From Nitrospirota bacterium (GTDB lineage Bacteria; JACPQY01): 64,000 bases of DNA. Within the stretch, counting starts at the first letter, position 1, and every line of letters starts with the position of its first letter. Below the pieces are notes generated by a model. It was not told the DNA's origin, ran no database searches, and saw nothing but the letters and a program-made list of their open reading frames with translations. Where the stretch lies: positions 1 through 64,000 of the forward strand of contig JACPAV010000020.1 in NCBI GenBank assembly GCA_016180645.1. The letters are read 5' to 3'. Below are positions 19,665 through 53,361 of this stretch, piece after piece. The position numbers and the translations under genes are program-made.

Positions 19665-22600
19665 GAACGGCTGGCTGCCGCCTGTCGAGCGCCTGATGAT
19701 CCCGGGGCTTGTCATTGCGGGGATGGTCTGCTCGATGCTGATTCGGGCGACTTGGGGCCGGAGGCCGCAGGCTGAACCCTCAAGAACGGGGGGGGCCTCC
19801 GGGAGGAATCGGGCGGGGAGAGCTTGGGCGGGGTTGGTCCTGAGGTACCGGTGGCCGATTATCGTGGGGTTCGGCCTGCTGAGCCTGCTCCCTCTATATG
19901 CCCGGCCGATCATCTACACCGACCCGATCGGAGAGTTTCCGAAAGACGACCCTCTTTACGTGCAGTACCGCAAGCAGGAACACTTGGGGACGGGCCGGCT
20001 GGCGGTGATCTCCCGGAGTTTCCGATGTCTGGACGAGCTATCGAGGATTCTTCCGCGTGACGTGGTTCTCCCGGCGGTGGAAGACACCAGTCCACTTGAT
20101 CGCAAAGGTCTGTTCTTCATGCGCCCCGAGGACTTGGACACGCTCAAGGACTTGGCGGGAAACTACCCCATCGGGTCCGTTCTGAACGCCGGGTCCGCGG
20201 GGGAGCTCTACTACGAGTACGGGAACCTCCTCAGGGTCGCGGTCACCAAGGGAAAGGTGGCCATGAATCCCCGGGACGCCGATACGCGTCTGAATGCGCT
20301 GGACCGGTTTGTGGACGACACGGAGAGGATCCTGCTGAGCGGAGCGGCGCGAGCGAGCGATGTCCTGCCTGAGGCGAATCGTGATCTCCCGCGGAATCAA
20401 GGGAGGCAAAGGCCCCCTGCGCTCCGCTCCGGAGACGATGAATGGAAGAATCATGGGGCCTCGGCATCGCAGATGGCGATGAAGAAGGCGACGCAAGGAC
20501 CGCATGACCCTTCTGATCGTCGTCCCCGGAGCGAAGCGGAGGGGGGGAACCCCGGCTGGGATCCCTTTCCGGTGGAGACGATGCTTCTTCCCGGCGATGC
20601 GGGGGCGTGGCTCGCAGGGAGGGGTTTTATTCTGCCCGTGACATGGGCATACGAGGGCCTCGAAGCCCAGGCGCGTGCGCCGGCATTCTATACCATGTAC
20701 CTCAGGGTCACGGCGCCGCACACGGTGGACCCGAACGTGGGGCGGGAGGCCAAGGCGGCCATGCTTCCCCTGTTCAGGCAGGTCGCGAAACAGAAGGGAT
20801 GTACGGTTGAGGTCACGGCCAACTTGGAGGACGGCCGTGCGGTCATCCGGGAAGAGCCGGATTTCGAGATTGGCGGCGTGTCGGTGGGAAGCGGTGAGAT
20901 CTACGACTTGGTCCTGCGTGACCTGTGGAAGACGGGATTGGCGACCAGCCTGATTGTTCTCGTGGTGTTTACGCTGTTCCTCCGACGGTTCGCCGTCGGT
21001 CTTATTGCGATGGCCGTAACGACGATTCCGGTCCTCATTGCGTGGGGCTTAGGCGGACTCCTTCTGAAAGACATCACGGTGGTCGCCAGCCTGATCATGC
21101 CGCTCCTCATCGGACTCGGGGACGACATCTGTCTCCACATGGTGACGCGCCTCCGGAACCTGGATGGAGACGAGTTCAAGGAGGGCTTGGCGGACATCGT
21201 GGGACCGACGCTGTGGGCCGGCTCGGTATTTGCCGCCGCGGGGCTGGCTCTGAGCGCCGCGTACATCATGGGCCCGCAGCGTATGGGGGCCTTGGCGACC
21301 ATTGGAATGGTCTGCACGACGGCTGCCGCCGTGATGCTTGCGCCGGCGCTGATGTCGGTGGTGCCGCTGAAGTACAGGCGGGATCGGGAGGGCTTGCTGA
21401 AAGCGTTTGCGGACGCGATCGCCGAACGCGTGCAGGTGGGGGCGACGGTGGTGCAGCGAAGGCCGCGGCTTGTCGTGACCCTGGTTGCGGGGCTGGTTGC
21501 AGTGTCGTGCGTGGTGGCGTTCGGGTACCCGGGCGTAAAGATGATATGGAACCCATACAAAGTACTGGCTGAGGTGCCGGGCAAGCGCTGGCTGCACAGG
21601 ACTCAGGAGGCCACGGGCTATTGGCCGGTACCGACCGCGGTGTATCCATCGGATGGAGGGCCGAGCAAGGGGTCGATCCGAACGGATCGACTGGTCGGCA
21701 AGGTGGAATCGTTGGAGAGAGTCATGCCGGGGCTTGAAGCTCCGCGGGTGGTCGAAGAAGCGCGGGCGATCATGGTGAGGGAGGTCGAGAGGGGGAAAAG
21801 CGGCAGGGATCGGAAACTGGCCGAGGGGCTGAGAAGGTTCGATGAGGGGCTGGATGCTCTGGGAGAGATGATGGGCTTGAGCGGCCAGGTGTCGAGCTAC
21901 TACCGCGTGAAGGAGCTACGGGAGAAGGTGCGCTCGCTGATCGCATACGCCATGGAAGACGACGCGGCGCGACGTGAGGCCCTGCGAGACCTGGATACTT
22001 GGGCCGCGGCCAGCGTGGCCGGTGGCCGTGACAAGCTGCTGCGCATGGAGACGACCCGGCCGCAGCCGGACGACCTGCCGTTTTTCGGAGAAGGGGGGCG
22101 GGAAAGGATGTGGGTGTACCCGCGGGAGGCGGTGGTCCACTTGGCCGATGAAAAGATCGAGGAATGGGTCCGGCACACGGACGCCATGGGTGAAACGATC
22201 GGCGCCGAGAAGATCATCCACCACTACATTCAAAGGATGAAGTCGAGTCTGGTGCTGTGCGTCGTCCTGGGGTTTGTCATGATCTTGCTTGCGAATCAGA
22301 TGGCGGCTGGGTCGTGGAAGACGAACTTGATCATCCTGTCCCTTCCGTTGGCCGCGGCCGTGGTGACGGCGGCGGGCATGGCGGTGGTAGGGATTCCGTT
22401 CGATACCTCAAGCGTGTGGGCCTTCGCGCTGCTCCTTGGCATAGGGCTTGACGATGCCGTTCACGTGGTTCATGTCGGCCCGCGGGGATTGGTGCCGATA
22501 CTTCCACCGATGTTGGTGACCACGCTGACGACGGTGGGAGCGGGTGTCACGTTGCTGTTCGCCGGGACTCCTGGGTTTCGCTCGTTCGGTTGGTTCTACA

Positions 22601-22725
22601 TCTTCAGTCTCACGACGGTGTGGATCCTTTCAGTCTTTTTCCTGCCGTGCCTGCTCCAAGTGATGAAGCTGCGCACGGGCGAGGCCGTGGGCCCAGGCTC
22701 AGAACCTGTCCGGGGCTCTGGGTAA
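19663..22725 (+). CDS. MMPL/RND-family transporter
   Basis: Two transmembrane blocks with LLIGLGDD and LLLGIGLDDAVH motifs. Confidence 0.85.
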   Translation: MNGWLPPVERLMIPGLVIAGMVCSMLIRATWGRRPQAEPSRTGGASGRNRAGRAWAGLVLRYRWPIIVGFGLLSLLPLYARPIIYTDPIGEFPKDDPLYVQYRKQEHLGTGRLAVISRSFRCLDELSRILPRDVVLPAVEDTSPLDRKGLFFMRPEDLDTLKDLAGNYPIGSVLNAGSAGELYYEYGNLLRVAVTKGKVAMNPRDADTRLNALDRFVDDTERILLSGAARASDVLPEANRDLPRNQGRQRPPALRSGDDEWKNHGASASQMAMKKATQGPHDPSDRRPRSEAEGGNPGWDPFPVETMLLPGDAGAWLAGRGFILPVTWAYEGLEAQARAPAFYTMYLRVTAPHTVDPNVGREAKAAMLPLFRQVAKQKGCTVEVTANLEDGRAVIREEPDFEIGGVSVGSGEIYDLVLRDLWKTGLATSLIVLVVFTLFLRRFAVGLIAMAVTTIPVLIAWGLGGLLLKDITVVASLIMPLLIGLGDDICLHMVTRLRNLDGDEFKEGLADIVGPTLWAGSVFAAAGLALSAAYIMGPQRMGALATIGMVCTTAAAVMLAPALMSVVPLKYRRDREGLLKAFADAIAERVQVGATVVQRRPRLVVTLVAGLVAVSCVVAFGYPGVKMIWNPYKVLAEVPGKRWLHRTQEATGYWPVPTAVYPSDGGPSKGSIRTDRLVGKVESLERVMPGLEAPRVVEEARAIMVREVERGKSGRDRKLAEGLRRFDEGLDALGEMMGLSGQVSSYYRVKELREKVRSLIAYAMEDDAARREALRDLDTWAAASVAGGRDKLLRMETTRPQPDDLPFFGEGGRERMWVYPREAVVHLADEKIEEWVRHTDAMGETIGAEKIIHHYIQRMKSSLVLCVVLGFVMILLANQMAAGSWKTNLIILSLPLAAAVVTAAGMAVVGIPFDTSSVWAFALLLGIGLDDAVHVVHVGPRGLVPILPPMLVTTLTTVGAGVTLLFAGTPGFRSFGWFYIFSLTTVWILSVFFLPCLLQVMKLRTGEAVGPGSEPVRGSG
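20414..20544. repeat. Two 57-bp family-A units in inverted orientation (20414-20470 minus, 20488-20544 plus), in frame in MMPL
   Basis: Encode PALRSGDDEWKNHGASAS and ATQGPHDPSDRRPRSEAEG. Confidence 0.85.
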
Positions 22726-22736
22726 AGGAGATCGGG

Positions 22737-24728: not shown

Positions 24729-24732
24729 AGGA

Positions 24733-26307: not shown

Positions 26308-26379
26308 GTGATTGTGGGACGGTCGGAGTAACGGGTGGTGGCGCGACGAGTTCTTTTTCAGTTATGGTATCATGGAGTC

Positions 26380-28355: not shown

Positions 28356-29426
28356 TCACAGCATCCTCAAGGAGAAGCGGCCCCGGCCGGTTTCTTTCAC
28401 CTTGTAGAGTTCGTCGTCGGCGGCGCGGAGGGCAACGACAGGAGGCACGGTGGCAGGCGCTCGCACGAATCCGGAGCTGAGGGAGTAGGGCACCGACTGG
28501 AGTTCCTTGGGGACAAGGTCGTAGAGCTGTTTTGCCTTGTCCTTGAGACGGGAGGCGTCCGTGGGACAGAAAAACACCCCGAATTCGTCGCCGCCTAAGC
28601 GGCCGGCAAAACTGCCCTGACTGGTGACGGACTTGAGGCAGGCCGCCGCGGTCTTGATCGCCTCATTGCCCCCGTCATGACCGAGGCTGTCGTTGATCCT
28701 TTTGAGGAAATCCACGTCCACGAAGGCGACCCCGTAGGAATCCGTCGGCCGAAGCTGCCGGCATTCATCGACAACGCGTTTCATGAAGTAGGCGTGAAGG
28801 AACAAGCCCGTAAGTCCGTCCAGGGTGGCTCCTCGCTCGGCATATCGCGCGCGCTGGGCAAGGTTTCGGACTTTGTCGGTGTTGCGGCGTCGCATCTTGG
28901 CAAGAAGGTCGGCGCGGTTAAGGAGGAACCACGCTTCGCCGAGGTTACGAGGAGAAAGGGAGACATCGCAGCCCGCGATCAGGAGGTCGGTAACGCGATC
29001 GAGAGACAACTCATCGGTCCAGACGGCGATACAGGACACGTGGTCGGCGAGCGGACCGCCCCCGGATGCCAGGAGGAGGGCTCGGAGGGCCGTGGCGTCG
29101 TCCGCGCCGCAGTAGATGATGCGGAGGTCCCCCGGGGCCGTGGGGTCGATTCGATTCTCGTTTTGAGCCCAGGTGACACGGAGCCCGTCTGGACTGAACA
29201 CGGTCATCCGGGTTGCGAGCTGTGCCGCGCTGACATCCCCGATGAGGATCCAGACCGGTGGCGGGAGGGCGGCTGAAGTGCCGTTGTCCCCTTCGCGTCG
29301 CTCCGGGGACGACCCCCTTCGCTCCGCTCCGGGGACGATGATAGGATTCGCGATGGGGTCTTCGCGTCGCGATCGGATTTGCCGTGGGGTCTGTGCGTCG
29401 ACCCGGGGGCTAGGCTGGTACGGCAT
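28356..29426 (-). CDS. Diguanylate cyclase (GGDEF)
   Basis: DGLTGL, DVDFLKRINDSLGHDGGN, RLGGDEF, AD..LY..K..GR. Confidence 0.9.
   Translation of the reverse strand: MPYQPSPRVDAQTPRQIRSRREDPIANPIIVPGAERRGSSPERREGDNGTSAALPPPVWILIGDVSAAQLATRMTVFSPDGLRVTWAQNENRIDPTAPGDLRIIYCGADDATALRALLLASGGGPLADHVSCIAVWTDELSLDRVTDLLIAGCDVSLSPRNLGEAWFLLNRADLLAKMRRRNTDKVRNLAQRARYAERGATLDGLTGLFLHAYFMKRVVDECRQLRPTDSYGVAFVDVDFLKRINDSLGHDGGNEAIKTAAACLKSVTSQGSFAGRLGGDEFGVFFCPTDASRLKDKAKQLYDLVPKELQSVPYSLSSGFVRAPATVPPVVALRAADDELYKVKETGRGRFSLRML
29288..29401 (-). repeat. Family-A unit nested in a family-A unit (114 bp), in the GGDEF N-terminus
   Basis: Outer left half, full inner unit, outer right half. Confidence 0.8.
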
Positions 29427-30789
29427 GGCTTTGAATGTGTCGGATAATGGATTCAGGCGTGTGTTGCCTCAGCACGCGGTCCGCTTTTGCGGGTGTGACG
29501 AGGACGTCGACGGGGGTACTGAAACCATAGGAATTCACCTCTGTGGGCGGGCCGACGTCCGAGGATCTGGACGCGAGAAGCGCTGTGTTGTCCCCTTCGC
29601 TCGTGGGCCTTGCTAGGCTTCGCGCAAGGCCCACGTCCGGGGACGACGAGCAGAATTGCCATGGGATCATTGCGTCGTGGATGACAGGGCACCATCCCGA
29701 GGGGAGATGACCTTGGGGATCGGAAAACCGCCTCGGGGTTTCAAGAATGATTTCGTCCTGCTCGAGTCCCAGGAACTCGGCGAGTTCAATCTCGGCAGAG
29801 CCGGGATGGGCGGCCAGTTCGAGGAAAGCCTGCTCCCCGGGACGGAGCGATAGCACCGTCCGATAGAGACCTCTCTCGCCGACGCGTGTGCCCCGAACGA
29901 GGGCATCGGCGACCACATTGCCTTGCGTGGCGATCCATGTCTTGCAGTCGTCCGGCGTCTTGCCGCTGAGTGCGCGAAGCACGTCCTCGGGCTCCATGAG
30001 CAGGGCATCGATGGCCTTCTTGATCATCGCCCTGCCCGCACGGACGCAGGGGTGATGATACAACGTGCGGCGAAGGGCCGCGATGTTTTCGCTCCAAAGT
30101 CGCGTGAGGGGGGCAGCAAAATCCAGGACAGTGAGCCGATCGTATGAGTCGGTTGTGACAACGGACGGATAGAGAATGCCTGGAAGCTCGGCGAGGGAGG
30201 CGAGGCCTGCATGGAAGGCACTACGTGGATGGACGTCGGCCTGAACGCATCCCAAGGGGGCAAAGAGACAGTCCGCGAGGAGGGTCGCGGTCTCGCGGCG
30301 GTTCTCGTAGGCGTCGGTTGAGGGCAGGCTGTCAGGGAGTGGGTAGACCAGGTTGGCGAGAGTAAGCGGATCAAGCCCCATCGCCTTGAGCGGTTCGCCG
30401 AGTGTTTGGAGGATGATTTCGCGTCCGGTTCGGGGAATAAGGACTTCGTCCAGGGCTTCGGCGATGAGGTCCAGGAGGGGGCTGGCGGCGAAGGCAATGT
30501 CATGAACGAGCGCAGCCGCGAGGTAGCGAAGCTCGTCTTCAGGGGCCAGGATCTCCGTGATTTCCGGAACGTTGTTCCGGAGCGCGGCGAGCATGGCCTG
30601 AGCCCGTTCCAATGATCCGAGGGCGTGTTCAAAGCGGTCATTCTTGGACCCGGGATAAACCAGGTCCGCGCCGTTCCAGACGGGAGCTCTCCGCAGGCTT
30701 TGGAGCGCTTCGGATTCCACGAGCGGTATGAGAGGGAGCGGAACACGAACGCTCGACAAGGGCTGTTGAATCATGATCCATCGGGGCAT
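29410..30789 (-). CDS. HD-domain protein, divergent SAMHD1/dNTP triphosphohydrolase-like
   Basis: LQSLRR, LVYPG...RFEHALG, AALVHDI, LYHHP.VRA. Confidence 0.7.
   Translation of the reverse strand: MPRWIMIQQPLSSVRVPLPLIPLVESEALQSLRRAPVWNGADLVYPGSKNDRFEHALGSLERAQAMLAALRNNVPEITEILAPEDELRYLAAALVHDIAFAASPLLDLIAEALDEVLIPRTGREIILQTLGEPLKAMGLDPLTLANLVYPLPDSLPSTDAYENRRETATLLADCLFAPLGCVQADVHPRSAFHAGLASLAELPGILYPSVVTTDSYDRLTVLDFAAPLTRLWSENIAALRRTLYHHPCVRAGRAMIKKAIDALLMEPEDVLRALSGKTPDDCKTWIATQGNVVADALVRGTRVGERGLYRTVLSLRPGEQAFLELAAHPGSAEIELAEFLGLEQDEIILETPRRFSDPQGHLPSGWCPVIHDAMIPWQFCSSSPDVGLARSLARPTSEGDNTALLASRSSDVGPPTEVNSYGFSTPVDVLVTPAKADRVLRQHTPESIIRHIQSHAVPA
29592..29678 (-). repeat. Family-A unit with an internal CGTGGGCCTTGC..GCAAGGCCCACG hairpin, in frame in the HD gene
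   Basis: 87 bp = 57 + 30. Confidence 0.75.
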
Positions 30790-30796
30790 GGGGCAC

Positions 30797-35779: not shown

Positions 35780-35784
35780 GGGGC

Positions 35785-35910
35785 CCCCTCCGCTCGTGGG
35801 CCTTGCTTGGCTCCCGCCTTCGCGAAGCCCGCTCCGGTGGGCGTAGGAAGGTCGCGCAAGGCCCACGTCCGGGGACGATGAGTGGAAAGATCATAAGGTC
35901 TTGGCATCGC
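35785..35910 (-). repeat. Intergenic family-A unit with a nested hairpin that itself carries a GCTCCCGCCTTCGCGAAGCCCGCT module
   Basis: 126 bp = 57 + 69; the inner module is also seen reversed at ~48007-48039. Confidence 0.75.
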
Positions 35911-37375: not shown

Positions 37376-38991
37376 CATGGGTGTTTCGCGAGCACCGAGG
37401 GAGGCGGCTGGGCGCCGGCCTCAAGGAGAACATCGACGGGGCGGATTGCACCATAGCGCACCTGCTCAATCACCCAGGCTTTCTTGGTGCGTTCGTAGGC
37501 GGCCACCTCGTTCAGAAGTTCAACGAGCGCCTGCCTGAAGATGTCATGGTAGTCTGAAAGTTTCCCGACGTTGCCCTCCAGAACGCCAAGATCGGTCTGA
37601 ACGGTCTGGATGAGCGCGCGGAGCTCCTCTTTGGCTCCCGTCTGAAGCTGGAGCGTGTCGTTGGGGACGGACTGGCCGGCGGCTTCGGGAAAGATGTGGG
37701 CGCGGTTGGCGGCCGTGAGAACGGCCTGGGTGCGTCTCAAGACGACGAAATTCGCCAGGTGTTCAGCGACGATGTCTTTGGCGAGAAAACACAAGCGGTC
37801 GAACTCGTCGTTGTGGGTTTCGGCGTTGGCGCGACAGAGCGCGGCTCCATAGTAGGTGAGGGAACCAAGGGGGATTTGACGGGCGTCCGCGAAGGCGCCG
37901 TCGCAGACTCCACCGGGCATGAGGGGGGTGTCGGAGCCGAAGGTTTTGGTCGTGCCGTAGACGGTAAGGCTGAGACCTGAACGACCCCCGGGTACGGAAT
38001 AGAGCTTTTCCAGTTCGGCCCGGGCGCCATCGGGCCCTACAATGGACGGATTGGCGGCGATCCGGTCCACGGTGCGCGTGACTTCCTCCTTGAGGCAGCG
38101 GCGGAGCTCGCGCGTCTTATCGCCAATGGGTGTGCTCGTGGTCTGACCGGCCTCGATGGAGCTTTGCATTGGCCAAAGTTTGCGCCCCCAATTCGCCCAG
38201 ACGTTTCCGGCGATCTTTTCCATGGCTTGGTCCGCAGTGAAAGCGCCGGGGATGCCGAGTTTCTTCCACCAGTCTTCCAATGCAGAGGGGTCGCTGCAGC
38301 CGCCGGCGTCCGCGGCCTGACCTTTGCGAGCGACGCACTCGAGTCGTTTGTTGTAGTCTTTGAGGAAGGGACTGCTGGATCCTTGCGTTTCTTGAGAGAG
38401 CTTGAGGGCTGCAAACTGGGCCATTTGTTGACAATCGGCCATCTGGAAGGAGGCAACCATCGCGCCGATACGTTGCAGCTCGTCGATGGTGGAACCGACC
38501 TTGGGCAGGTGTTTCATGAGATACAGGGAAGCAAAGCCGGCGGTAGCCGGCAGACTGGAGACCACCTGGCGGAGCTGGTCGACGTTGGCGTGCTGGACAA
38601 TGAAATTGTTCACGTCGAATTGGCAACCGTTCATATGAACACCCGGCATCTGCAGACGAAAGAGCTCCGTATTGGATGGCGGCTGATCAGGAGCCCAGTG
38701 CAAATTGAACGTTCGGAGATCCGTGTCCCCCGAGGCGCTTCCCGATCCATACCAAGGGGGCCTTTTGTCGGGGGTGCGACCATAATCAGTCGCGAAGGGT
38801 TCCGCATGGGCCGGAGGAACGGGCGCCACCAAAACGAGAAACGCCGTCGCGAGGCCGAACGAGACGAGAAGGATGCGACGCAAAGACCCCATGGCGAATC
38901 CGATCGTCGTCCCGGTGCCGATCCTCATACCCTTCCGATCACCGTCCCCGGAGGGGGCCGGAGCGAAGCGAAGGGGGCGCGGCGTCTTCAC
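37375..38991 (-). CDS. TraH-like periplasmic conjugation protein (start GTG 38991 or ATG 38892)
   Basis: Signal peptide, FRLQMPG...GCQFD and QMADCQ; located between TraF and TraG as in F-type clusters. Confidence 0.5.
   Translation of the reverse strand: MKTPRPLRFAPAPSGDGDRKGMRIGTGTTIGFAMGSLRRILLVSFGLATAFLVLVAPVPPAHAEPFATDYGRTPDKRPPWYGSGSASGDTDLRTFNLHWAPDQPPSNTELFRLQMPGVHMNGCQFDVNNFIVQHANVDQLRQVVSSLPATAGFASLYLMKHLPKVGSTIDELQRIGAMVASFQMADCQQMAQFAALKLSQETQGSSSPFLKDYNKRLECVARKGQAADAGGCSDPSALEDWWKKLGIPGAFTADQAMEKIAGNVWANWGRKLWPMQSSIEAGQTTSTPIGDKTRELRRCLKEEVTRTVDRIAANPSIVGPDGARAELEKLYSVPGGRSGLSLTVYGTTKTFGSDTPLMPGGVCDGAFADARQIPLGSLTYYGAALCRANAETHNDEFDRLCFLAKDIVAEHLANFVVLRRTQAVLTAANRAHIFPEAAGQSVPNDTLQLQTGAKEELRALIQTVQTDLGVLEGNVGKLSDYHDIFRQALVELLNEVAAYERTKKAWVIEQVRYGAIRPVDVLLEAGAQPPPSVLAKHP
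38875..38976 (+). repeat. Family-A unit with a 45-bp insert, overlapping the traH-like 5' end
   Basis: 102 bp = 57 + 45; the same insert is present within 46512-46670. Confidence 0.75.
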
Positions 38992-41219: not shown

Positions 41220-41276
41220 ACGATGTAGAGACCCCATCAACCTTCCACTCATCGTCCCCGAAGCGAAGCGGAGGGG
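41220..41276 (+). repeat. 57-bp family-A unit upstream of the pilin gene
   Basis: ..GACCCCATCAACCTTCCACTCATCGTCCCCGAAGCGAAGCGGAGGGG. Confidence 0.8.
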
Positions 41277-41459
41277 GCGATCAGGCGCGAACGCTCTGAC
41301 GGGAGCGGCCGGGTCGGCCATCCTGGCCGCTTCCGGCACCGCTACCGCGTCCTGCGGGCGGGAATCGATCCACCAAGAAATAAGGAAGGAAATGAATCGA
41401 AGGGAAGCAAACCGCCGCTCGATAGAGCGGCATCCCGAAAGGGAAGGAGGTACAGTCGA

Positions 41460-44408: not shown

Positions 44409-46101
44409 ATTGAGAAACCTTCGTTACGTGGTGGCGGGTGTGGCGGCAAGCGCGTGCCTGCTGTGGGACCTTTCGTCGGCCAGTGCCTCGGAGAGCCCAA
44501 CCGGAGTAGCCGGGGACCTGGTGAATCTTTGTTACTCGTTCCTCAACCCCACGTGTCTTGGGTACGGCCTTGAAGTCAAACCGGTTGTGTGCCCGGCAAC
44601 AAATGCGGCGGTCAGCTACTACACGCCGCGGTTCATTGTCGAAATCGTCAACAAGCCGGGTGAAGTGCTCTTGGGTGAACCCTTCAGCTACTTGGTCGAG
44701 AGGGCGCTGGAGGAGGTGCAAGCCGGGTGGAAAACGATGGGCATGGGTGTGATCGGGGGGGCGCTGGGAGCCTTGAGCGGAAGAAGCGCCGAAATGGCGG
44801 CGCTGGGGGCGGGGACGGGTGCGCTCCTGGGGGAGCTCGGACTCGAACGCCTGGGCTCGGGTGAAAGCAAGTACGAGAACGGATCGTTTCAATTCAGGCG
44901 CGAAGCCCACGTGTACGAGCTGGACTGGGATCCCTACTCAATGCTGGAACTGGACCAGAACTGCGAGCCGAGAATGATTCCAGATTATCCGTTGATCTAT
45001 CCGGTTTATCTCTCAGAACTGGACTTCTGGCACTGGTCGACCGGATTGGGAGATTTTGTCGCAACCGATGAGTTGGCCTTCAAGGGAAAGACGCTTGCGA
45101 CAGGGGTTCCGCGGGCCTTGTTGGGGTTCAAGACGCTCGGTCCGTACGGACCGGCGTACCCGACCTACGGTGAGGTCGAAGATCCAGGGAACGAAGCGCA
45201 GGGCGCGCTTGTACTCGCGCTGCGGGCGGTCCAACGAAGTCACGACCTGGGTCTACCCGGGCTGAGCATGGGAGACGTGAGAAGAGTTCTTCTTTCCGAC
45301 GCAGGTAAGCTTGGCGCCGGTACGTGCGTGGACCCGAACATGGACATGAAGGACATGCCGGCGCACATGTTTGACTTCTCCAAAAGTTCCGCTCTCAACA
45401 TGAATGGCTGGGTCCTCTACGTCTACGAAAAGCGCACACACTGCGTGGACAAGGCTACCTGGCGGTGCGGAGTGGGGGTTGCAGCCCGGGCCATAGGGGC
45501 CGTAACGGGACCGAAGGGATACTTGCTTGTGGAAGGTGGGGCGAGGTGGCTCAAGAGCGCGGAAGTGAGCATGCGCGTGAAGGAGTTTTCGGAGAAGGTC
45601 ATCGAGACGTATCGGGAATACAGGAAGTACATCAAGACCCTCCTCAAGCTGGCGGGCGTGGTGATCAGCGCGTACACGATCTATCGATCGGTGGATGAAA
45701 TCAGGCAGATGTCGAAAACGGCGGGAGATGAGAAGGCGGCCCGCGAGGCAACGGGGAAGGACGGTGTGGAGACGGTGTCGAGGGCCAACCGGGTCCGATC
45801 ACAGTCCGAGCGCTGCGCAGGCCTCGCCGCGGGAGACCGGGAGAGCTGTCTAAAATCCGAAATGCGCAAGGAGGAGTGTCAAGAGAATACGGAGTGTAAC
45901 TCTGTGAGCAGGGAGCAGGATGCCAGGATTAAGGGGGCGGCCACGGCGCATTCGCGCCACCTGGGCGGCGGCAGATATGAAATCAGCGACGGGACGCAGA
46001 CCACGATCATCCAACTGCCCGTCGCGCCGGAGGCGACGCAAGGCCCCGATGATTCTTCCTCTCGTCGTCCCCGGAGCGGAGCGGAGGGGAATGACAAATG
46101 A
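44389..46101 (+). CDS. TraU-like protein
   Basis: VSYYTPRFIVEIV, FREAHVY-like, YLSELDFWHW, YGPAYP.YG motifs; Cys-rich. Confidence 0.65.
   Translation: MERRRPKLRNLRYVVAGVAASACLLWDLSSASASESPTGVAGDLVNLCYSFLNPTCLGYGLEVKPVVCPATNAAVSYYTPRFIVEIVNKPGEVLLGEPFSYLVERALEEVQAGWKTMGMGVIGGALGALSGRSAEMAALGAGTGALLGELGLERLGSGESKYENGSFQFRREAHVYELDWDPYSMLELDQNCEPRMIPDYPLIYPVYLSELDFWHWSTGLGDFVATDELAFKGKTLATGVPRALLGFKTLGPYGPAYPTYGEVEDPGNEAQGALVLALRAVQRSHDLGLPGLSMGDVRRVLLSDAGKLGAGTCVDPNMDMKDMPAHMFDFSKSSALNMNGWVLYVYEKRTHCVDKATWRCGVGVAARAIGAVTGPKGYLLVEGGARWLKSAEVSMRVKEFSEKVIETYREYRKYIKTLLKLAGVVISAYTIYRSVDEIRQMSKTAGDEKAAREATGKDGVETVSRANRVRSQSERCAGLAAGDRESCLKSEMRKEECQENTECNSVSREQDARIKGAATAHSRHLGGGRYEISDGTQTTIIQLPVAPEATQGPDDSSSRRPRSGAEGNDK
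46033..46089 (+). repeat. 57-bp family-A unit forming the TraU-like C-terminus
   Basis: GCGACGCAAGGCCCCGATGATTCTTCCTCTCGTCGTCCCCGGAGCGGAGCGGAGGGG. Confidence 0.9.
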
Positions 46102-46964
46102 GCGTCGTCGGGGTGGTGCAGGATCACTGGCGCGTTTTCCACTCAAGTGTATTGGGTCAGGGCGGATGGATTCCTGTCGCGCACTCGGGCGGGCTGCTGT
46201 GGCTCAGTCTCTCGCCCGGTCTGGGCTTCCTGATGCTGTGCCTTGGCGCCGCCAGCCGCGCGCGCGGCCGGCGGGGAACGGGGTTATGGGTGAACCTGGC
46301 GTTGAACCATCTGGTGCTGGGAGTTTCGTACTGGGCGCTTGTGGGTCTCAGGATCCACGGCGCACTGATGGAGTCCGCCGGATTTGGGGGAGAGATGGTG
46401 GCTCTGGAAGTCCTGCTCCTGAGCGGACTGGTCGGAGTTCATTACTACTACCGGCAAGCGGGTCGACCGAACGCTACGGTGGTTGAGGAGTGGGAGGCCG
46501 GGATGGGTCTGACGACGCAAGGCCCCCATGATTCTTCATCTCGCGACGCGAAGATCCCATGTCGATTCCTGTCGTCGTCCCGGTGCCAATCCCCATCGCT
46601 TCCAATCACCGTCCCCGGAGGGGGGCCGAAGCGGAGCGAAGGGGATCGTCCGTGGAGCGGAGCGGAGGGGACGAAGGCGCAAGCCCCCGTGCGCTTCTGG
46701 GTGAGGTGCGTCTGTTGGGTGTACTTGGTCCTTCCGGCGGTGCTGTATCTCGCAGTCCGCGCGAGGCGGGGTTGGGGTGCTGGGCGGGGCGGCGATGCTG
46801 AGATCCCACGATCCTTCCACTCACGACGCCAAGACCCCATGGCGAATCCGCCCGTCGCCCCAGAAGCGGAGCGAATGGGGTCGTCCCTGGAGCGGAGCGG
46901 AGGGGGCGGCGGCGCGGATGATTTGCGGTTGACGCCTGAAGAGCGGGGATACGATGTGGCTTGA
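46098..46964 (+). CDS. Hypothetical membrane protein largely expanded by repeat insertions
   Basis: About four TMs; overlaps its neighbours; about 90 codons are repeat-derived. Confidence 0.55.
   Translation: MSVVGVVQDHWRVFHSSVLGQGGWIPVAHSGGLLWLSLSPGLGFLMLCLGAASRARGRRGTGLWVNLALNHLVLGVSYWALVGLRIHGALMESAGFGGEMVALEVLLLSGLVGVHYYYRQAGRPNATVVEEWEAGMGLTTQGPHDSSSRDAKIPCRFLSSSRCQSPSLPITVPGGGPKRSEGDRPWSGAEGTKAQAPVRFWVRCVCWVYLVLPAVLYLAVRARRGWGAGRGGDAEIPRSFHSRRQDPMANPPVAPEAERMGSSLERSGGGGGADDLRLTPEERGYDVA
46512..46670 (+). repeat. Nested family-A units plus a 45-bp insert
   Basis: 159 bp = 57 + 57 + 45. Confidence 0.8.
46792..46905 (+). repeat. Nested family-A units
   Basis: 114 bp = 2 x 57. Confidence 0.8.
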
Positions 46965-49203
46965 TCTCCTTGCGTTTTATAAGAGGTGGATCCGCGTCTT
47001 CTCGGAGGCTATTCCTTGGGCGCTAACAAAGGGAGACTGGAAGGACGTTCTACATGTCATGGCGTTGAGCGTGTGTTCGGTGGGATTTGTGGTGGGTGTT
47101 CGCCTTCTTCGAAAGTCTTGTTCGAATGGCGACGGTGCCACGATGGCAGACCGTACCCGGAGGTCCATGGATGGACCGGGAGGGTGCGGGCGGCGGAGGG
47201 CCGTCCATCGTTTCTCGTACCCGCTCGCGCAGTGCCTCATCAGTACAGGTCTGGTGTACTGGGTATTTCTCTGGTTCGGATGGGGAGGGATCTTCATGGG
47301 CTACCCATCCATTTTCGCCGGGGTAATGATCGTGTACGCGGGTACGGCGCTGCTGCATCCAAGACTTCACTACCTGCTGATTGGCCAAAAGCTCATGGAT
47401 GAATTTGCCATAACCGTGCTCTACCCGTGGTATCGGGCCACGGGCAGACCGGTCCTAACGGATCCCGGATTCGCCGTCCGGTTTGTGTCTATGGCAATTC
47501 CGCTGTCGCGCGCCGCGAGGTATGTCGTGGGGGAAATACTCAGGGATCGGAAGGCGGATTCCGGAGAAAACGCGTTTGCGTTTTGTCGACGCCTCTACAA
47601 GGAAAGCCTCGACCCATCGCGTCGGGGCGTCCTGAAGCGGCACCGGACGCCGGCAGGGTCGCCCCCTCCGCTCCGCTTCGGGGACGATGAGTGGAAGGAT
47701 CATGGGATCTCAGCATCGCCGGCTGGGAGTCATTCGCCCACGTCACCCTCCGCCGCCCTCCATGGCGCTCCGGGTACGGTCGGCCATCCTGGCACCGCAG
47801 TCGCGGTCCACGATGAAAAGACAATGGAAATTGATAGACAGCGCGAGGTCAGGGGTGAGGGGCCGCAGAGGGCGGCTTCCGTAGGGTCCACCCTTGAAAA
47901 GGCGTCGAGGCCGGAGGGGACCGCGAGTGAATCGGAGCGCGCACCTCGGCGTACCAGTGAACCTGCCCGCCGGCAGGACGCCGAAGGGGTGCCGGACCTT
48001 CCTTCGCCCGCCGTAGCGGGCTTCGCGAAGGCGGGAGCGGCCAGGATGGCCGACCCGGCCCGAAGCGGAGCGGAAGGGGCGAAAACAGCGGGCGATGGGG
48101 AGATCAGGGGTCCGCTGAAAGAGTTGGAACTGGAACTCGGGGCGAAGGAACCGTGGGTGGGCACGACTCTGCGGTATCTGACGGAAGAGCGCGTGCCTTT
48201 CCCGATGAGTGGTGAGGAGCGCGTTGAGGATCTGTTCCGGAGATCCCAGTGCCTCACGTGGAGCATTGCACGCCAGATCGGGAACGTTTCCGAGAGCGGC
48301 CGGTATGCCTCCATCACGCAAAGGATCATGTCTCGGCACAAGGGGGCGCGCATCATTACGATCCCCCCCGAGGGTCCGGGGCGGCCACTGGAGGTTCTAT
48401 TGGGGGTGGGCGCAAAGTCGGTTGATGATCCGGAATTCGTTCATTGGCTGGGAACGGGATTCCTGATGGCCGCGGTAATCCGTGAGGCGAGCGTAGCCGG
48501 AGGGTGGCGTGTGGTCATGCTGTGCCGGGAGAGGACCGTTACGCCGGCGTTGGATGAAAATGATCGGGGGACGGAGACGCACGGGCAGTTAAAGAATAAA
48601 TTCGAGCAGTACAGGGAAGTGCTCCGCTGGGTTCCCGGAGCGACATTGGTGTGGGTCACGAACAGTGAGGCGCGGGCGCTGGGGATCCTCGAGGACGCCG
48701 CGGCGGTTCTTCCGCCGGAAATGGTTTCCCGAGTATTGGTACGGGCCATGGTCGGGAGGGAGTCGGTTCTGCGTCTTGGCGGAAACGCGGCTCCGGTTGT
48801 GCTCGGGCACCTGTCGGTTCGGATGCCCACCGGTGAGACAAGGCGGGAGATTCATCTGCTCCATGACAGACGAGCTGGGGAACGTGGGCCGGGCGGCGAC
48901 AGTGTTAGACCTTTGGTGGCTCTACCCACGGCGAAAGGAGACAGGGTTGTCATGGAGAAGAGCCAACCCCCGAGTCCCACAAACACAAACGGAGAGAGTG
49001 TCGACGTTGTGGCGTACGTGACTGGCAAGGATGGAGAGAAATCGGCGGGCCAACTCCCACTGCAAGAAACGGGTGGCAGCACGGAGCGGCCGCGGGCTGC
49101 GTTGCACCCAGGCTACATGGAGCACCCTTGCGAAGTGGGTAGGCTGGTTTTCCCGGGTTACGTGCGGTTGGACGCCGCTGAAGGGACGGGAGTTCGTGCA
49201 TAG
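46954..49203 (+). CDS. Membrane-anchored protein with a replication-relaxation (Replic_Relax-like) domain
   Basis: N-terminal TMs; HWLG...ENDRGTE...LKNKFEQY...LVWVTNSEARA resembles Replic_Relax. Confidence 0.5.
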   Translation: MWLDLLAFYKRWIRVFSEAIPWALTKGDWKDVLHVMALSVCSVGFVVGVRLLRKSCSNGDGATMADRTRRSMDGPGGCGRRRAVHRFSYPLAQCLISTGLVYWVFLWFGWGGIFMGYPSIFAGVMIVYAGTALLHPRLHYLLIGQKLMDEFAITVLYPWYRATGRPVLTDPGFAVRFVSMAIPLSRAARYVVGEILRDRKADSGENAFAFCRRLYKESLDPSRRGVLKRHRTPAGSPPPLRFGDDEWKDHGISASPAGSHSPTSPSAALHGAPGTVGHPGTAVAVHDEKTMEIDRQREVRGEGPQRAASVGSTLEKASRPEGTASESERAPRRTSEPARRQDAEGVPDLPSPAVAGFAKAGAARMADPARSGAEGAKTAGDGEIRGPLKELELELGAKEPWVGTTLRYLTEERVPFPMSGEERVEDLFRRSQCLTWSIARQIGNVSESGRYASITQRIMSRHKGARIITIPPEGPGRPLEVLLGVGAKSVDDPEFVHWLGTGFLMAAVIREASVAGGWRVVMLCRERTVTPALDENDRGTETHGQLKNKFEQYREVLRWVPGATLVWVTNSEARALGILEDAAAVLPPEMVSRVLVRAMVGRESVLRLGGNAAPVVLGHLSVRMPTGETRREIHLLHDRRAGERGPGGDSVRPLVALPTAKGDRVVMEKSQPPSPTNTNGESVDVVAYVTGKDGEKSAGQLPLQETGGSTERPRAALHPGYMEHPCEVGRLVFPGYVRLDAAEGTGVRA
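47149..47189 (+). repeat. Family-C 41-bp hairpin repeat (identical copy 51218-51258; variants 47744-47781 minus and 52550-52588)
   Basis: GACCGTACCCGGAGGTCCATGGATGGACCGGGAGGGTGCGG. Confidence 0.85.
47663..47719 (-). repeat. 57-bp family-A unit in frame
   Basis: Encodes PLRFGDDEWKDHGISAS. Confidence 0.85.
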
Positions 49204-49447: not shown

Positions 49448-50577
49448 AGAAGGACAAGGATGCCGAATTCGATGTGATCTTGTGGATAGTCGTGGCCATC
49501 CTGGCCGGGGCCTACATGCTCCACTTGGCGGGGGGCCGCGTCCCGGGTCTGGAGGAGACGTTTGCCGAGGCGGACGGCAGTTTCGACGAGGCCCTCGATC
49601 TTTCGAGTGGAACCGCCCGCCTGCTGTCGGATCACGGCTGGTTTCCGGATCGATACATTGACGCTTCTTGGCCGATCCGTCGTGTGATCCTGGCGGCGCA
49701 CAAGAACGGAAGCCTCCCGGCGAAGATCAAGGTCCGATGTTTGGTTCATCTCTGGAGGCTTGCGGTTGGGGGGTTGTTCGTCGTGTTTGGCTGGCTCGTC
49801 TGGTGGGCTGTGTTTTCGGCCAAGCGAGACAAAGTATCTGAGATGGCAGGAAAAAATGTCGGAGAAATCGAAGCTGGATACCACATTTCAATGCGGCCGT
49901 GGGTCGCGTACCCGGTGCTTCGATTGACAACCAGAGGCCGACGACTGACTGGATGCGTTGTAGATACCGTCCGCACCCCGGAGATTGTGGAGTTGTGCCT
50001 TGAGATGGGGCTCCTCTATGCGAGTTACCCGGGTGAACGATTGACGTTCGGTGCAGGGCGTGACGGGGGGCGGCTTTTGGATGCGGTCGTAGAGATGTTG
50101 GAACACTTCCGCAGACGGAAGTGGCCGGCGAGTCTGCGACGGGACCGTCGCGCGCGGGATCTTGCGTTCGCGGGGGTCATGGGCGCTCCTCTGGGGAAGC
50201 TGGACTCCGACCAACGAGGGGAGGGAACCCACCACTTTCTTGGCCCCTATCATGAGCACAAGAGCAGGATGCTTATCGCCGGACTGAAGACCTTCCAGGC
50301 GCTCCCGCAGGATGACAGACAGCGGCTTCTGTTGTGGGTTGGGACCCATCATAGCGACTCTTTACCGGATGAGTGCAGGGGGGAGAGAGACATCGCGCGG
50401 TTCATCTGTCACGCGGAGAGCGACGTGGTGGCAGAGCGAGCCAGTGAGGTCCACGACCTCGTAGAGGGGACGACGGCCGAAGAGGCCGGTAGGCGAAGGG
50501 AGCAGGCGCGACGCAGGGACCCCATAACGATTCCTTCCGTCGTCCCCGGAGCGGAGCGCAGGGGGCATGGACTTTAG
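49444..50577 (+). CDS. Two-TM protein with a degenerate HD-like C-terminal domain
   Basis: TMs, then AFAGVMGAPLGK / HEHKS / THHS spaced like HD folds but without the HD dyad. Confidence 0.55.
   Translation: MKKDKDAEFDVILWIVVAILAGAYMLHLAGGRVPGLEETFAEADGSFDEALDLSSGTARLLSDHGWFPDRYIDASWPIRRVILAAHKNGSLPAKIKVRCLVHLWRLAVGGLFVVFGWLVWWAVFSAKRDKVSEMAGKNVGEIEAGYHISMRPWVAYPVLRLTTRGRRLTGCVVDTVRTPEIVELCLEMGLLYASYPGERLTFGAGRDGGRLLDAVVEMLEHFRRRKWPASLRRDRRARDLAFAGVMGAPLGKLDSDQRGEGTHHFLGPYHEHKSRMLIAGLKTFQALPQDDRQRLLLWVGTHHSDSLPDECRGERDIARFICHAESDVVAERASEVHDLVEGTTAEEAGRRREQARRRDPITIPSVVPGAERRGHGL
50508..50564 (+). repeat. 57-bp family-A unit at a C-terminus; its G-rich end precedes the next ATG
   Basis: RRRDPITIPSVVPGAERRG. 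Confidence 0.85.
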
Positions 50578-50794
50578 CGGGTCAAGCAGTTGGAAGCGCG
50601 ATGGGGCCGAACGCACGCGTCACCTCGGCCTTGATCCGAGCGGGTGGCTGTTTGTGGCGCTCGTTCCGGTCACCTTCATAGTCGTGGATCCGAGCCAAGT
50701 CCCGACAGCGGCGTACGCGCTGCTGCTGGCCGTTGGCTCTATTGCCGTTTGGCGACGCCGCAGCAAGCAGCGAGAAGGAGGTTCCAATGTTTAG
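50567..50794 (+). CDS. Small membrane protein
   Basis: Two TMs; overlaps both flanking genes. Confidence 0.55.
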   Translation: MDFSGSSSWKRDGAERTRHLGLDPSGWLFVALVPVTFIVVDPSQVPTAAYALLLAVGSIAVWRRRSKQREGGSNV

Positions 50795-52514
50795 GTGGTT
50801 CGGACGGGGTGAAGACCGTCGGAGGCCGACGACGGGTGGCCGAAGGCTTGGAGGCTTTCCAAGGGTGTTTCAAACCGGACGAAGTGTGGAGAGTGGGAAG
50901 CCGGTCTGGATCTGGAACGATGGGGTGGAGCACGTGATAATCGTCGGCATCAGCGGGGCGGGGAAGACGACGTTTCTCAAGTACCTGGCGAATTGCATCA
51001 TCTCCGGGGGCGGGGGGTATCTCCATGTGACAGGTAAGCCGACAGATGAGGTCCTGAAAACGCTGCACTGGATGGCGGTTCACGCGGGGCGGGGAGACCA
51101 GTTCTATCTGCTGGACATCAACCGGATCGGGCGCGACGGGCCCGCAGTGCCACGATGGCAGACGACGCCGGGATCGGATGGCCATTCCAATCGTCGTCCC
51201 TGGAGCGGAGCGGAAGGGACCGTACCCGGAGGTCCATGGATGGACCGGGAGGGTGCGGACCGAGAGGCTGCGGGGGTATATGGTCGGGCGCTTCGAACCC
51301 ATCGGTGGGATCCGTTGTTCGGTTTGACGGCCCCGGAACAGGTTCAAGTGGTTCTGAGCGTGCTGGACCCCGAATATTTCCGGGGCGACAAGATCTACTA
51401 CTCGGAAATGGCCACGAGTTTCCTGCATCCGCTGATGCAAGCGCTGCGAAGCACGGGCGTGAGGTACACCCTCAAGGATGTAAGGGCTTTCTTTGCGTAT
51501 CCGGAACTGGCCGTACGGTATCTCCGGAGTGGAACGTATCGCCGCTCGCAAGGGATTCCGGAAGAGGTGAAACTCTTGGAGGACGAGCTGCTCCGATACC
51601 AGATGTCAAAAAGCAACACGGACAAGTTGGCCATGATGCTGTCGCAGATGGACGCGAACCTCCGGTTTTTTACCAGCCCTCCGTACGATGAAGTCTTCTG
51701 CCCGGCTGTCCCGGACTTTGAGATGATGGATTGCATCCGAGGGAATGCCGTGGTGGCCGTGTGTCTGGCGCCCATGGGGCGGGAGGATATCGCACGGAGG
51801 TTCGGGCGACTTTTCGTGGCAAACCTGAAGGCTTCCATCGGGCGGATTCTGATGAATCTCTCGTACCAGAAGCCCGACCCTATCTTCACGGTAGCTCTGG
51901 ATGAGTTCGGCGCGTTTGCTTCTCCGCAGATGGCGGTGTTATTCGAGCAATGCCGGGAGGCGCGGGTTCGACTCATTCCCGCGTTGCAGACAATCGAGAC
52001 ATTGGAGGACCCGAGCCTGGGGTTGAATCCTTCTTTTCGGAAAAGGGTCTTCGAAAACTGCGCCGTCAAGATGTTTTTTACTCTCGGGGCGGACAGCGCG
52101 GATATCGCTCAAGGTTACTTTGGACAGACGCGCAAAACATATCGGTCGGTGAGCCGGTCGGACCAACGCGGGCTTTCGATGGCCGCGCATGGGCTTTCCC
52201 ACCTGGGTCGGAGTTTGGGCAAGGGCTGGCAGGAGGGATACCAGGAGCGGGAGGCGTGGACGGTTCCGGCTCGCGAATTCATAGGGCTCAGGAAGTGGGA
52301 GGCGATTGTGGACGAGGGAGACTCAGTGCCGCGCCGGGCGGATTTGATGCGCCTGTTTGACTGCCCGGAGGGACATGAGATGAGATTGCTGTCCCATCAG
52401 GGGCACTTTGTGGGGCGGCTGCCACAGAAAGAAGGGAGGCCCGTGGGTCCGGGATCGGTCAGCATGCTGAACATGTGGGAGTCCTGCGTGAAGCAAGTCA
52501 GGCTGCAATGCTAA
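50787..52514 (+). CDS. traD: Type IV coupling protein (TraD/VirD4-like), no N-terminal TM
   Basis: HVIIVGISGAGKT, LDEF, QCREARV..ALQT, ENC; AAGGAGG RBS. Confidence 0.85.
   Translation: MFRWFGRGEDRRRPTTGGRRLGGFPRVFQTGRSVESGKPVWIWNDGVEHVIIVGISGAGKTTFLKYLANCIISGGGGYLHVTGKPTDEVLKTLHWMAVHAGRGDQFYLLDINRIGRDGPAVPRWQTTPGSDGHSNRRPWSGAEGTVPGGPWMDREGADREAAGVYGRALRTHRWDPLFGLTAPEQVQVVLSVLDPEYFRGDKIYYSEMATSFLHPLMQALRSTGVRYTLKDVRAFFAYPELAVRYLRSGTYRRSQGIPEEVKLLEDELLRYQMSKSNTDKLAMMLSQMDANLRFFTSPPYDEVFCPAVPDFEMMDCIRGNAVVAVCLAPMGREDIARRFGRLFVANLKASIGRILMNLSYQKPDPIFTVALDEFGAFASPQMAVLFEQCREARVRLIPALQTIETLEDPSLGLNPSFRKRVFENCAVKMFFTLGADSADIAQGYFGQTRKTYRSVSRSDQRGLSMAAHGLSHLGRSLGKGWQEGYQEREAWTVPAREFIGLRKWEAIVDEGDSVPRRADLMRLFDCPEGHEMRLLSHQGHFVGRLPQKEGRPVGPGSVSMLNMWESCVKQVRLQC
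51162..51258 (+). repeat. Family-A unit abutting a family-C unit, in frame in the coupling protein
   Basis: TTPGSDGHSNRRPWSGAEG followed by TVPGGPWMDREGA. Confidence 0.85.
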
Positions 52515-52602
52515 ACGGCTCGTGTTCGAAAGGCGGTGCCCGGACGGCGGACCGTACCCGGAGCGCCAAGGATGGCGCGAGAGGGTGCACCCTGACGTGA
52601 GT

Positions 52603-53361
52603 ATGCTGTGGGGTGTGGTCTTGGCTGCGATCGTCGCTCTTGACTCGACGCAAGGACCGGATGATTCTTCATCTCGCGGCGTAAAGGCCGAACGGCCGTT
52701 CCGCTCGCCGCCCTTGGAGCGAAGCGCAGAGGGTCGTCCGTGGCTCGTGCTACGCAGCGAGGCGCCGCTTCGCAGAGTAGCAAGCGGAGCGGAGGGGACG
52801 GAGTGCCAGGATCCTTTCACACCAGCAGCGGTCGAGTTCGGTCTGTCGCCGAAGTTGCTGTACGCGATTGCAAAGGTGGAAAGTGGCGCGCGGCGAAACG
52901 CTCTAAACGTGAGAGGCAAAGGTTATCAGGGGCTGTTGCCTTCCGAAGCGGCCGGTAAGGCGCAGGTTGCCTGGCGTAGGGGGGAATCGTTTGACCTGTG
53001 CGTCATGCAGATCAATTCGCAGCATCTGGGGAAGGAGCTGGCGCGGGGAGAAGCTGTACACCTGTTGGACGCTGGCGATTGTGTTCGGCGTGGAGCACGC
53101 ATACTTGCAGAGAACTATCTCCGGACCAAGGACATCTTACGGGCAATTGCGTTGTACCACAGCCCGAATCGGGCGCGGGGCGATGCTTATGCGTTGAAGG
53201 TAATGCGTGCATGGCGGGCCATTGGGAGTGAAAGGCTTTGCGTCGAGGCGGTTGAGCCTTGGGATGGTGTTGGCAAGGTCGAAGCCCAGTCAAATAGGGT
53301 GAGTGAACCGCGCAAGAACAACCGCCAAGCGCGCCTTGTTGGTCGGGCTTCCTTCAGGTAG
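52603..53361 (+). CDS. Lytic transglycosylase (VirB1/SLT-like)
   Basis: AIAKVES, DLCVMQINS, AIALYHS; start uncertain. Confidence 0.85.
   Translation: MLWGVVLAAIVALDSTQGPDDSSSRGVKAERPFRSPPLERSAEGRPWLVLRSEAPLRRVASGAEGTECQDPFTPAAVEFGLSPKLLYAIAKVESGARRNALNVRGKGYQGLLPSEAAGKAQVAWRRGESFDLCVMQINSQHLGKELARGEAVHLLDAGDCVRRGARILAENYLRTKDILRAIALYHSPNRARGDAYALKVMRAWRAIGSERLCVEAVEPWDGVGKVEAQSNRVSEPRKNNRQARLVGRASFR
52645..52797 (+). repeat. Nested family-A units plus a 39-bp hairpin insert, in frame in the SLT gene
   Basis: 153 bp = 114 + 39. Confidence 0.75.

Follow-up and report, generated by a model that had tools for sequence, protein, structure and literature searches.

A dispersed 57-nucleotide repeat carried in frame by many unrelated genes of a Nitrospirota bacterium, with a guide-like signature at its insertion sites

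The window analyzed here is a stretch of 64,000 nucleotides (nt), positions 1 to 64000 of contig C20 in a 65-contig, 4.72-Mb assembly of a Nitrospirota bacterium (GCA_016180645.1, referred to as G000). It carries conjugation-type genes (TraC, TraU-like, TraF-like, TraD-like, and SLT), and a 57-nt dispersed repeat, the subject of this study, occurs between positions 20413 and 52798. A first-pass annotation had reported 17 loci with about 21 units, conserved ends, and a variable middle. Our own parse gave 17 loci with 21 to 22 units, and the same ends and middle were seen in the position matrix of the units. The 57-nt repeat is real, but its natural register lies 1 nt to the right of the one first proposed and runs from the C of CGRYG through the G or A following GGGG. 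The left-end 16-mer had 14 matches in the window versus 1.54 expected, and the right-end 19-mer had 17 versus 0.16 expected; neither count was equaled in any of 100 shuffles.

The first two units lie head to head in the open reading frame (ORF) for an MMPL protein (19663-22725): a CGATG-type unit at 20413..20469 (-), read in a reverse frame (PPALRSGDDEWKNHGASAS), and a CGACG-type unit at 20489..20545 (+; ATQGPHDPSDRRPRSEAEG), which differs by 1 nt from a copy at position 24770 of contig C29. A 114-nt composite at 29287..29400 (-), one unit nested in another at CG/TCG, occupies codons 9 to 46 of a GGDEF ORF and may precede the true start. Near the C terminus of an HD_assoc ORF, an 87-nt composite (29591..29677, -) carries a 34-nt perfect palindrome (net +30) in the 3' hairpin loop of the unit. 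Simple 57-nt units follow at 33186..33242 (-) in a 988-amino-acid (aa) ORF (30797-33763; DAKTPLTFHSSSPERSAGG), where the consensus TGA of this frame is missing, and at 35428..35484 (-) in a 563-aa ORF (34175-35866; TTQGPHDSSSRRPWSGAEG). The start of the latter ORF is spanned by a 126-nt composite of a unit and a palindromic insert (35784..35909, -), which is effectively intergenic. On the strand opposite to their host ORFs lie a 57-nt unit at 36618..36674 (+) in ORF 35910-37265 (-; PPPLRSGDDEQNRYGIPAS) and a 102-nt composite at 38876..38977 (+) in ORF 37375-39162 (-), with a 45-nt mini-unit (GGTGCC..CACC GTCCCCGGAGGGGG) in its 3' hairpin stem.

Upstream of the tra operon, a CGATG-type 57-nt unit with CGAT repeated in its 3' flank is found in a weak 102-aa ORF (41221..41277, +). 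The 57-nt unit at 46034..46090 (+) provides the last 19 of 23 codons of a TraU-like ORF and ends 9 nt ahead of the stop, with which the next start overlaps. ORF 46098-46964 contains a 159-nt composite at 46513..46671 (+), in which an outer unit holds an inner unit that holds a 45-nt mini-unit, and, near its end, a 114-nt nested pair at 46793..46906 (+; insertion at CA/TCG). In the 749-aa ORF 46954-49203, a reverse-oriented 57-nt unit at 47662..47718 (-; PPPLRFGDDEWKDHGISAS) is accompanied by a remnant at 48058..48078 (+) that retains only the 3' hairpin module, behind another small palindrome. The 57-nt unit at 50509..50565 (+), which makes up the C-terminal tail of ORF 49402-50577, is identical to C29:4727-4783, and the flanks are unrelated. 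Another 57-nt unit lies at 51163..51219 (+) in the ORF for a TraD-like coupling protein (50733-52514; TTPGSDGHSNRRPWSGAEG), and the N-terminal part of the SLT ORF harbors a 153-nt composite (52646..52798, +) of an outer unit, a nested unit, and a net 39-nt insert in the hairpin loop.

About 15 of these loci had been placed inside coding sequences. Each of the 17 falls within an ORF of 100 aa or longer, but a clearly internal position holds for only about 11: those at 46034 and 50509 are C-terminal tails, those at 29287 and 52646 are N-terminal and may lie upstream of the true start, that at 41221 is in the weak 102-aa ORF, and that at 35784-35909 straddles an ORF start. The window copies use five frames rather than the four first listed, with the copy at 38876 in a second reverse frame. 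The lengths held as annotated: simple units measured 57 nt and composites measured multiples of three (87, 102, 114 twice, 126, 153, and 159 nt), with 5 nt added by hand to composite ends in many rows where the end pattern stopped early. Among the host labels, MMPL, GGDEF, HD_assoc, TraG-D_C (TraD-like), and SLT were obtained with Pfam and TraU was weak (E value, 8.8e-4); TraG_N and Ig lipoprotein were not recovered.

A search profile seeded with nine window units and iterated across the whole assembly gave 182 hits, which merge into 164 loci; 88 hits are ungapped full-length copies of exactly 57 nt. Hit density was 2.9 per 10 kb on C20 and 2.5 per 10 kb on C29, versus 0.1 to 1.4 on the other contigs, a 5- to 10-fold enrichment. 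Judging from their genes, C20 and C29 are conjugative-element DNA; outside the window genes named above, they carry SSB, ParB, RadC, Toprim, DUF3150, DUF6094, SNF2, and TraE genes. Two units are identical to each other, and in six further pairs the members are 1 to 3 nt apart. All seven pairs are on C20 or C29 and have unrelated flanks, while other unit pairs mostly show at least 6 differences across the 57 positions. Because copies with 0 to 3 differences stand between unrelated flanks, the sequences indicate present or recent mobility of the 57-nt unit.

With a crude gene call (coding fraction, 0.875), 87 of the 164 loci were inside ORFs, 30 overlapped ORF ends, and 47 were intergenic. Intergenic DNA is over-represented, as purifying selection predicts; nonetheless, many copies are truly internal. 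Conserved housekeeping genes are among the hosts, namely, tgt, mfd, a sigma-54 activator, a molybdopterin oxidoreductase, trkH, a radical SAM gene, prpD, and a phosphorylase. Among the 37 full units well inside ORFs, six frames are used, the commonest (xTQG..RRPRSGAEG) by 13 units. Strict co-orientation with the host gene was ruled out, as 23 of these units are oriented with it and 14 opposite. An adaptation to lack stop codons was also ruled out, with a mean of 4.2 open frames versus 4.28 in 57-mers drawn at random from the genome and 3.74 in shuffles.

Secondary inserts in the hairpin module always add multiples of three (45, net 30, net 39, and net 69 nt), and composites of 102, 114, 126, 132, and 195 nt outside ORF calls are also multiples of three. 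Single rows of 56, 58, 65, 125, and 157 nt depart from this rule, and those of 135 and 181 nt are apparently parsing artifacts. Nesting within another unit was seen for six of the 88 full units and for at least three inner units of composites, and the nesting point is constant, between the second and third bases of the internal CRYCG. In-register tandem arrays were found at C31:101670, C3:236485, and C5:7267. Hairpin modules also contain small palindromic inserts of at least four other kinds (the 45-nt mini-unit, the 34-nt perfect palindrome, and inserts of about 69 and about 41 nt), at approximate positions 29591-29677, 35784-35909, 38914-38958, 46582-46626, and 52720-52760, and each kind recurs elsewhere in the G000 genome.

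The unit peptide had been proposed to be an insertion rather than an ancestral segment of its hosts, and the homologues agree. In this very thinly sampled lineage, a phylum-level search found only one other genome (G001), in which nine host proteins were searched and six matched. All five clear orthologues (Tgt, the radical SAM enzyme, PrpD, the molybdopterin oxidoreductase, and a nucleotidyltransferase [NTP-transferase] fusion; 58 to 72% identity) are without the unit. The residues missing in G001 number exactly 19 for Tgt, 19 for each of loci L045 and L039, 19 to 20 for L043, and 23, the 19 among them, for the molybdopterin oxidoreductase (L041). The sixth match, at L034, is distant (32 to 35% identity) and is without both units; L038, L053, and L044 had no match in G001. 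For the MMPL protein, no G001 orthologue was found and a word-based homologue search was also empty, the same kind of search with the TraD-like protein returned the query alone, and tblastn gave no unit-free paralogues of the window tra genes. The TraD-like protein and its closest homologue are 39% identical across 512 aligned positions, and the homologue is missing a segment of some 55 residues that includes the unit peptide.

At the Tgt site, G001 reads TGCAAG followed directly by GCCGCG, and G000 reads TGCAAG, 57 nt, and GCCGCC. The peptide is absent from 61 of 61 aligned homologues and from the solved Tgt structures shown in the alignment. In about 9 of the 61 homologues, a longer and unrelated loop occupies the corresponding position, which marks the insertion site as a naturally variable loop. 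In the AlphaFold model of Tgt (mean predicted local distance difference test score, 86.5), the sole internal stretch scoring below 50 is residues 199 to 212, which overlaps the insertion. The proposed tolerance in surface loops was thus borne out in this one protein. The long tgt ORF begins with some 45 codons (L046; C31:50852-50980 in G000, upstream of tgt) that match 12 other places in G001 at 41 to 69% identity, and this 5' extension is probably another dispersed repeat lengthening the ORF.

We consider it very likely that the unit is a nonautonomous selfish mini-element of fixed length (57 nt, 19 codons) that copies itself into new sites and is tolerated through frame-keeping and a hydrophilic peptide. 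This peptide, rich in Gly, Ser, Arg, Pro, Asp, and Glu, would be tolerated in variable loops and at protein termini.

From 5' to 3', the unit consists of CGRYG-C, about 24 variable bases with ..CCCATG..TTC.., CRYCG, and TCCCC-GGAGCGGAGCGGA-GGGG-R. Its 3' hairpin, CCCC-(CGNAG)x3-GGGG, has a 4-bp G/C stem (up to about 9 bp with the flank) and a 13-nt loop of three CGNAG pentamers. Directly 5' of TCCCC, the majority class has CGTCG and other classes have CGCCG or CATCG. Covariation was assessed by mutual information across the 88 full units. Positions 3 and 32 pair in all 88 (A-T in 60, G-C in 27, and G-T in 1), positions 4 and 31 in 85, and positions 39 and 53 in 85, and the CGRYG/CRYCG pair covaries (in 87 of 88 units) through three pair types. 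Because these position pairs covary, the pairing of the 5' pentamer with the internal pentamer and the CCCC/GGGG stem are taken to be real. Internal position 32 is also linked to the third base after the unit, so the 3' flank offers the internal pentamer an alternative pairing partner.

Apart from CCCC/GGGG, neither the position matrix nor the covariation of the 88 units showed any terminal inverted repeats. A strong palindrome was ruled out, since the fold energies were no better than those of shuffles; the element is weakly palindromic, and palindromic only in the covariation sense. Subfamilies as lineages were also ruled out, as the other 47 positions showed 14.8 differences within a guide class versus 15.4 between classes. 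The guide state is unlinked to the remainder of the unit, as would be expected were a change of guide sufficient for retargeting.

The 3' flank repeats part of this pattern. It opens with CG in 46 of the 82 non-nested full units (56%), versus a genome frequency of 10.6%, and the unit's own RY dinucleotide recurs there in 33 of 82 versus 14.4 expected. The maximum of 10,000 permutations was 27, with none reaching 33, and the 5'-flank control gave 1 of 82. Rare variants obey the same rule (CCGCG...CGCGG...CCGCG and CGAGG...CCTCG...CGAGG). When averaged over 122 units, in-register identity between the unit start and the 3' flank was above the control at about positions 0 to 8 and then at background; individual direct repeats range from 0-1 to 12 nt. 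At L041 and L045, the 5' CGRYG copy aligns with host codons of the G001 orthologue, and the 5' CGRYG may be target DNA. The covarying 5' end, internal 5-mer, and flank fit a rule whereby the internal 5-mer would decide the site. This three-way covariation offers a testable handle on site choice by REP (repetitive extragenic palindromic)-like repeats that have no transposase, a choice left open for CGTC repeats in PMC3733652.

As for the mechanism, we tentatively favor, at a little under even chances, a route in which the unit moves in single-stranded form and the internal 5-mer guides it to its target. An HUH-type nuclease provided in trans would bind the 3' hairpin and cut and rejoin the unit. 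The 5-nt CRYCG at the 5' foot of this hairpin would act as a guide by pairing with CGRYG at the site of cleavage or insertion, in the manner of IS608, for which target choice guided by base pairing is established according to the portions of PMC5934647 and PMC3201880 consulted. The element would then land beside a host CGRYG matching its own guide, which would leave CGRYG on both sides of the insert. Candidate enzymes are one of seven Y1 (IS200/RAYT-like) transposases or the relaxase of the conjugative elements that are densest in units. The seven Y1_Tnp genes in G000 have the REP-associated tyrosine transposase (RAYT) as their best NCBIfam model, at 70 to 74 bits (cut-off, 80). Five of them are located at C48:52212-53294, C48:53614-54576, C46:14126-15064, C36:71675-72397, and C52:22213-23226, and the other two are on C25. 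Two short RAYT genes, at C25:34771-35903 and C25:105641-106550, have their own GTAG REPs with coverage peaks of about 90 to 156 genome matches and are classical REPtrons.

A number of observations weigh against this mechanism. The first-pass annotation had suggested looking for a linked transposase, and none adjoins any copy; we infer that mobilization is in trans. None of the seven Y1 genes is flanked by the 57-nt unit, and the nearest unit to any of them is 570 bp away. Each of the two short RAYT genes is bordered by a GTAG REP family of its own, GGGGTCAAG-type repeats border the long Y1 genes, and no gene-carrying parent element with the unit's ends was found in G000. Ten window units folded as DNA gave z scores of -2.0 to +1.7 versus shuffles. 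Exact direct repeats of at least 7 nt (7 to 12 nt) flank 10 of the 88 units versus 0.3 expected, which is longer than a 5-nt guide explains, and nested copies are without a direct repeat. At the Tgt site, just 6 of 8 positions match by an eye count, and of 40 units of the CGACG type, a single one carries an exact CGACG in its flank. Moreover, IS608-type elements show strict strand bias, and here orientation is weakly tied to GC skew (odds ratio, 0.39; p of about 0.01, from copies that are not independent).

A stronger form of this mechanism is doubtful. It envisions a guide-programmed single-stranded mini-transposon whose internal guide alone sets the site, belonging to a nested set with lengths in multiples of three (57, 45, and net 30, 39, and 69 nt), and whose hairpin implies a widespread, unrecognized enzyme. 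If this were true, a single compensated change would retarget the element, lengths in multiples of three would let nested mini-elements live inside coding DNA, and the mobilizing enzyme for orphan CGTC-type repeats would be widespread and not yet recognized.

Copy-choice without a transposase, through template switching or short-patch gene conversion, is unlikely. A nascent strand ending in a CGRYG-like host sequence would pair with the start of another unit, copy one period, and return. Such a route explains the constant gain of 57 nt together with direct repeats of 0 to 12 nt carrying non-consensus letters, as well as the in-register tandem arrays, the absence of a linked transposase, and the enrichment on DNA passing through single-stranded replication. 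However, microhomologies of 5 to 8 nt are short for ectopic switching at such a scale. The lasting complementarity of the internal CRYCG, the repeat-free nesting at exactly one point, and the hairpin module in other repeat families of other phyla are also left unexplained.

A miniature inverted-repeat transposable element (MITE) moved by a DDE transposase is quite unlikely. Here, the first 8 or so nt would be a fixed-length target-site duplication, strongly preferring CGRYGC targets, around a 49-nt core, and a fixed duplication plus a fixed core would account for the constant 57 nt. The drop of unit-start/flank identity to background after position 8, the alignment of the 5' copy with host codons in L041 and L045, and the Tn3-family DDE genes on C29 are in its favor. 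On the other hand, the unit has no terminal inverted repeats beyond CCCC/GGGG, its nested copies are without duplication, no parent element was found, and the duplicated site covaries with a complementary internal 5-mer, a behavior that to our knowledge no DDE element displays. A sequence kept chiefly for an RNA or protein function (a regulatory hairpin or a useful peptide) rather than as selfish DNA is highly improbable: the covarying paired positions and the uneven frame use, with 13 of 37 internal copies in one frame, would suit it, but the use of at least five frames on both strands means that no single peptide is conserved, the host proteins are unrelated, the sister genus is without the peptide in every orthologue checked, 47 of 164 loci are intergenic, no Rfam family matches, and the folds are not unusually stable.

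The units also affect assembly and gene calling. Public sequencing runs listed for this DNA comprised no RNA run and four DNA runs from one study, three of which may be the source of G000; in these four, contigs stop at units, so the units break assemblies, and as they extend ORFs at both ends, gene calls are distorted in such genomes. No clean empty-site variant was found in the contigs of these four runs; they contain a 45-nt skip at 46580/46626, which could derive from another copy. At 48554/48555, within ORF 46954-49203, contigs of all four runs have 54 extra letters absent from the window, a multiple of three that represents either population presence/absence or assembly collapse. Beyond the units, a 2433-aa ORF at 54208-61509 (-) opens as a large serine recombinase (Resolvase, Recombinase, and Zn-ribbon, aa 5 to 363) and then continues with MopE and many RCC1 repeats; either an unusual fusion or the loss of a stop codon would account for it.

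Outside G000, mainly the hairpin was encountered. Hits of the 25-nt hairpin pattern numbered 80 in G000 and 2 each in G001 and one further genome; the remaining 38 sampled genomes had none. The hairpin CGTCCCCGRAGCGNAGCGNAGGGG is common to other repeat families in genomes whose labels include Chloroflexota, Actinomycetota, and Planctomycetota, among others. With a degenerate 24-mer, the module was matched at 33 loci (L001 to L033) in a species-level genome collection, with labels that include Anaerolineae and other Chloroflexota, an Acidimicrobiales metagenome-assembled genome (MAG), four Streptomyces, and MAGs assigned to Planctomycetota, Elusimicrobia, Bacillota, and other groups. All 33 differ in the 5' part, and the whole unit is found only at L021, which is intergenic in a MAG labeled Nitrospirae. 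In a Chloroflexia MAG (L012, L013, and L026), the hairpin module lies within long frames with coding-like GC by codon position. A metagenome scan for the junction of the two modules, from which records of the own genome were perhaps excluded, gave seven loci, all partial chance matches with no whole unit. Rfam returned no relevant family for the window or for 20 loci from other phyla.

No account of the 57-nt element was found in the literature searched. The first-pass annotation had likened it to Rickettsia palindromic elements (RPEs) without recognizing the family; the absence of a matching described family is supported by the empty Rfam result and by the different stem and loop of the CGTC-tagged REP families in the part of PMC3733652 consulted. 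As far as the RPEs of Ogata et al. (2000) are summarized in the parts of PMC10969869 and PMC3733652 available, they share with the unit a short dispersed sequence, in-frame placement in many unrelated functional genes with a tolerated extra peptide, several frames or families, and no transposase of their own. RPEs also end in CGTC according to the same part of PMC3733652, and CGTC likewise stands at the foot of the hairpin of the 57-nt element. In these summaries, however, RPEs are about 100 to 150 bp long and strongly palindromic, whereas the unit is 57 nt long and weakly so, and flank/guide covariation and fixed-site nesting do not appear in the portions of the descriptions consulted. Its length sets the unit apart from the RPE families. 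The hosts differ as well, a free-living groundwater lineage versus the obligate intracellular Rickettsia.

The CGTC-tagged REPs, families CGTC-1 to -4 (Di Nocera et al. 2013; PMC3733652), resemble the unit, as far as the consulted part of that work goes, in an unpaired CGTC before a stem-loop, some intragenic copies, and the lack of a dedicated transposase. As described there, their stems are 8 to 9 bp long and start with A/T pairs, the loops measure 4 to 5 nt, the tail is CCA, and most copies form head-to-head dimers, whereas the unit has a 4-bp G/C stem, a 13-nt loop, a GGGGR end, and an attached 33-nt 5' module. GTAG REP/REPIN-RAYT systems differ in that the unit is without a GTAG tag and flanks no RAYT gene, and DDE-type MITEs differ in their terminal inverted repeats of 15 to 30 bp, which are absent from the unit. 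With the IS200/IS605 and REP/RAYT systems, to the extent covered by the parts of PMC5934647, PMC3201880, and PMC3333891 consulted, the unit would share a hairpin of the kind bound by Y1-HUH enzymes and a guide at its 5' foot pairing with the target; Y1 genes are also present in G000. The unit differs in that no cognate transposase in G000 shares its ends and in its proposed single guide for both ends, rather than two. The direct repeats of the unit also appear to exceed the guide length, and its strand bias is weak.

In general, the sequence evidence indicates a real, abundant in-frame mini-element with an unusually clear guide-like signature of target choice, for which the mobilizing enzymes named here are candidates only. 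Its architecture and sequence are new, and the element is of the REP/RPE kind. In-frame selfish DNA at such a scale has so far been a peculiarity of Rickettsia; here, it is found in a free-living, barely sampled lineage, where the 57-nt unit sits even in core genes such as tgt and mfd.

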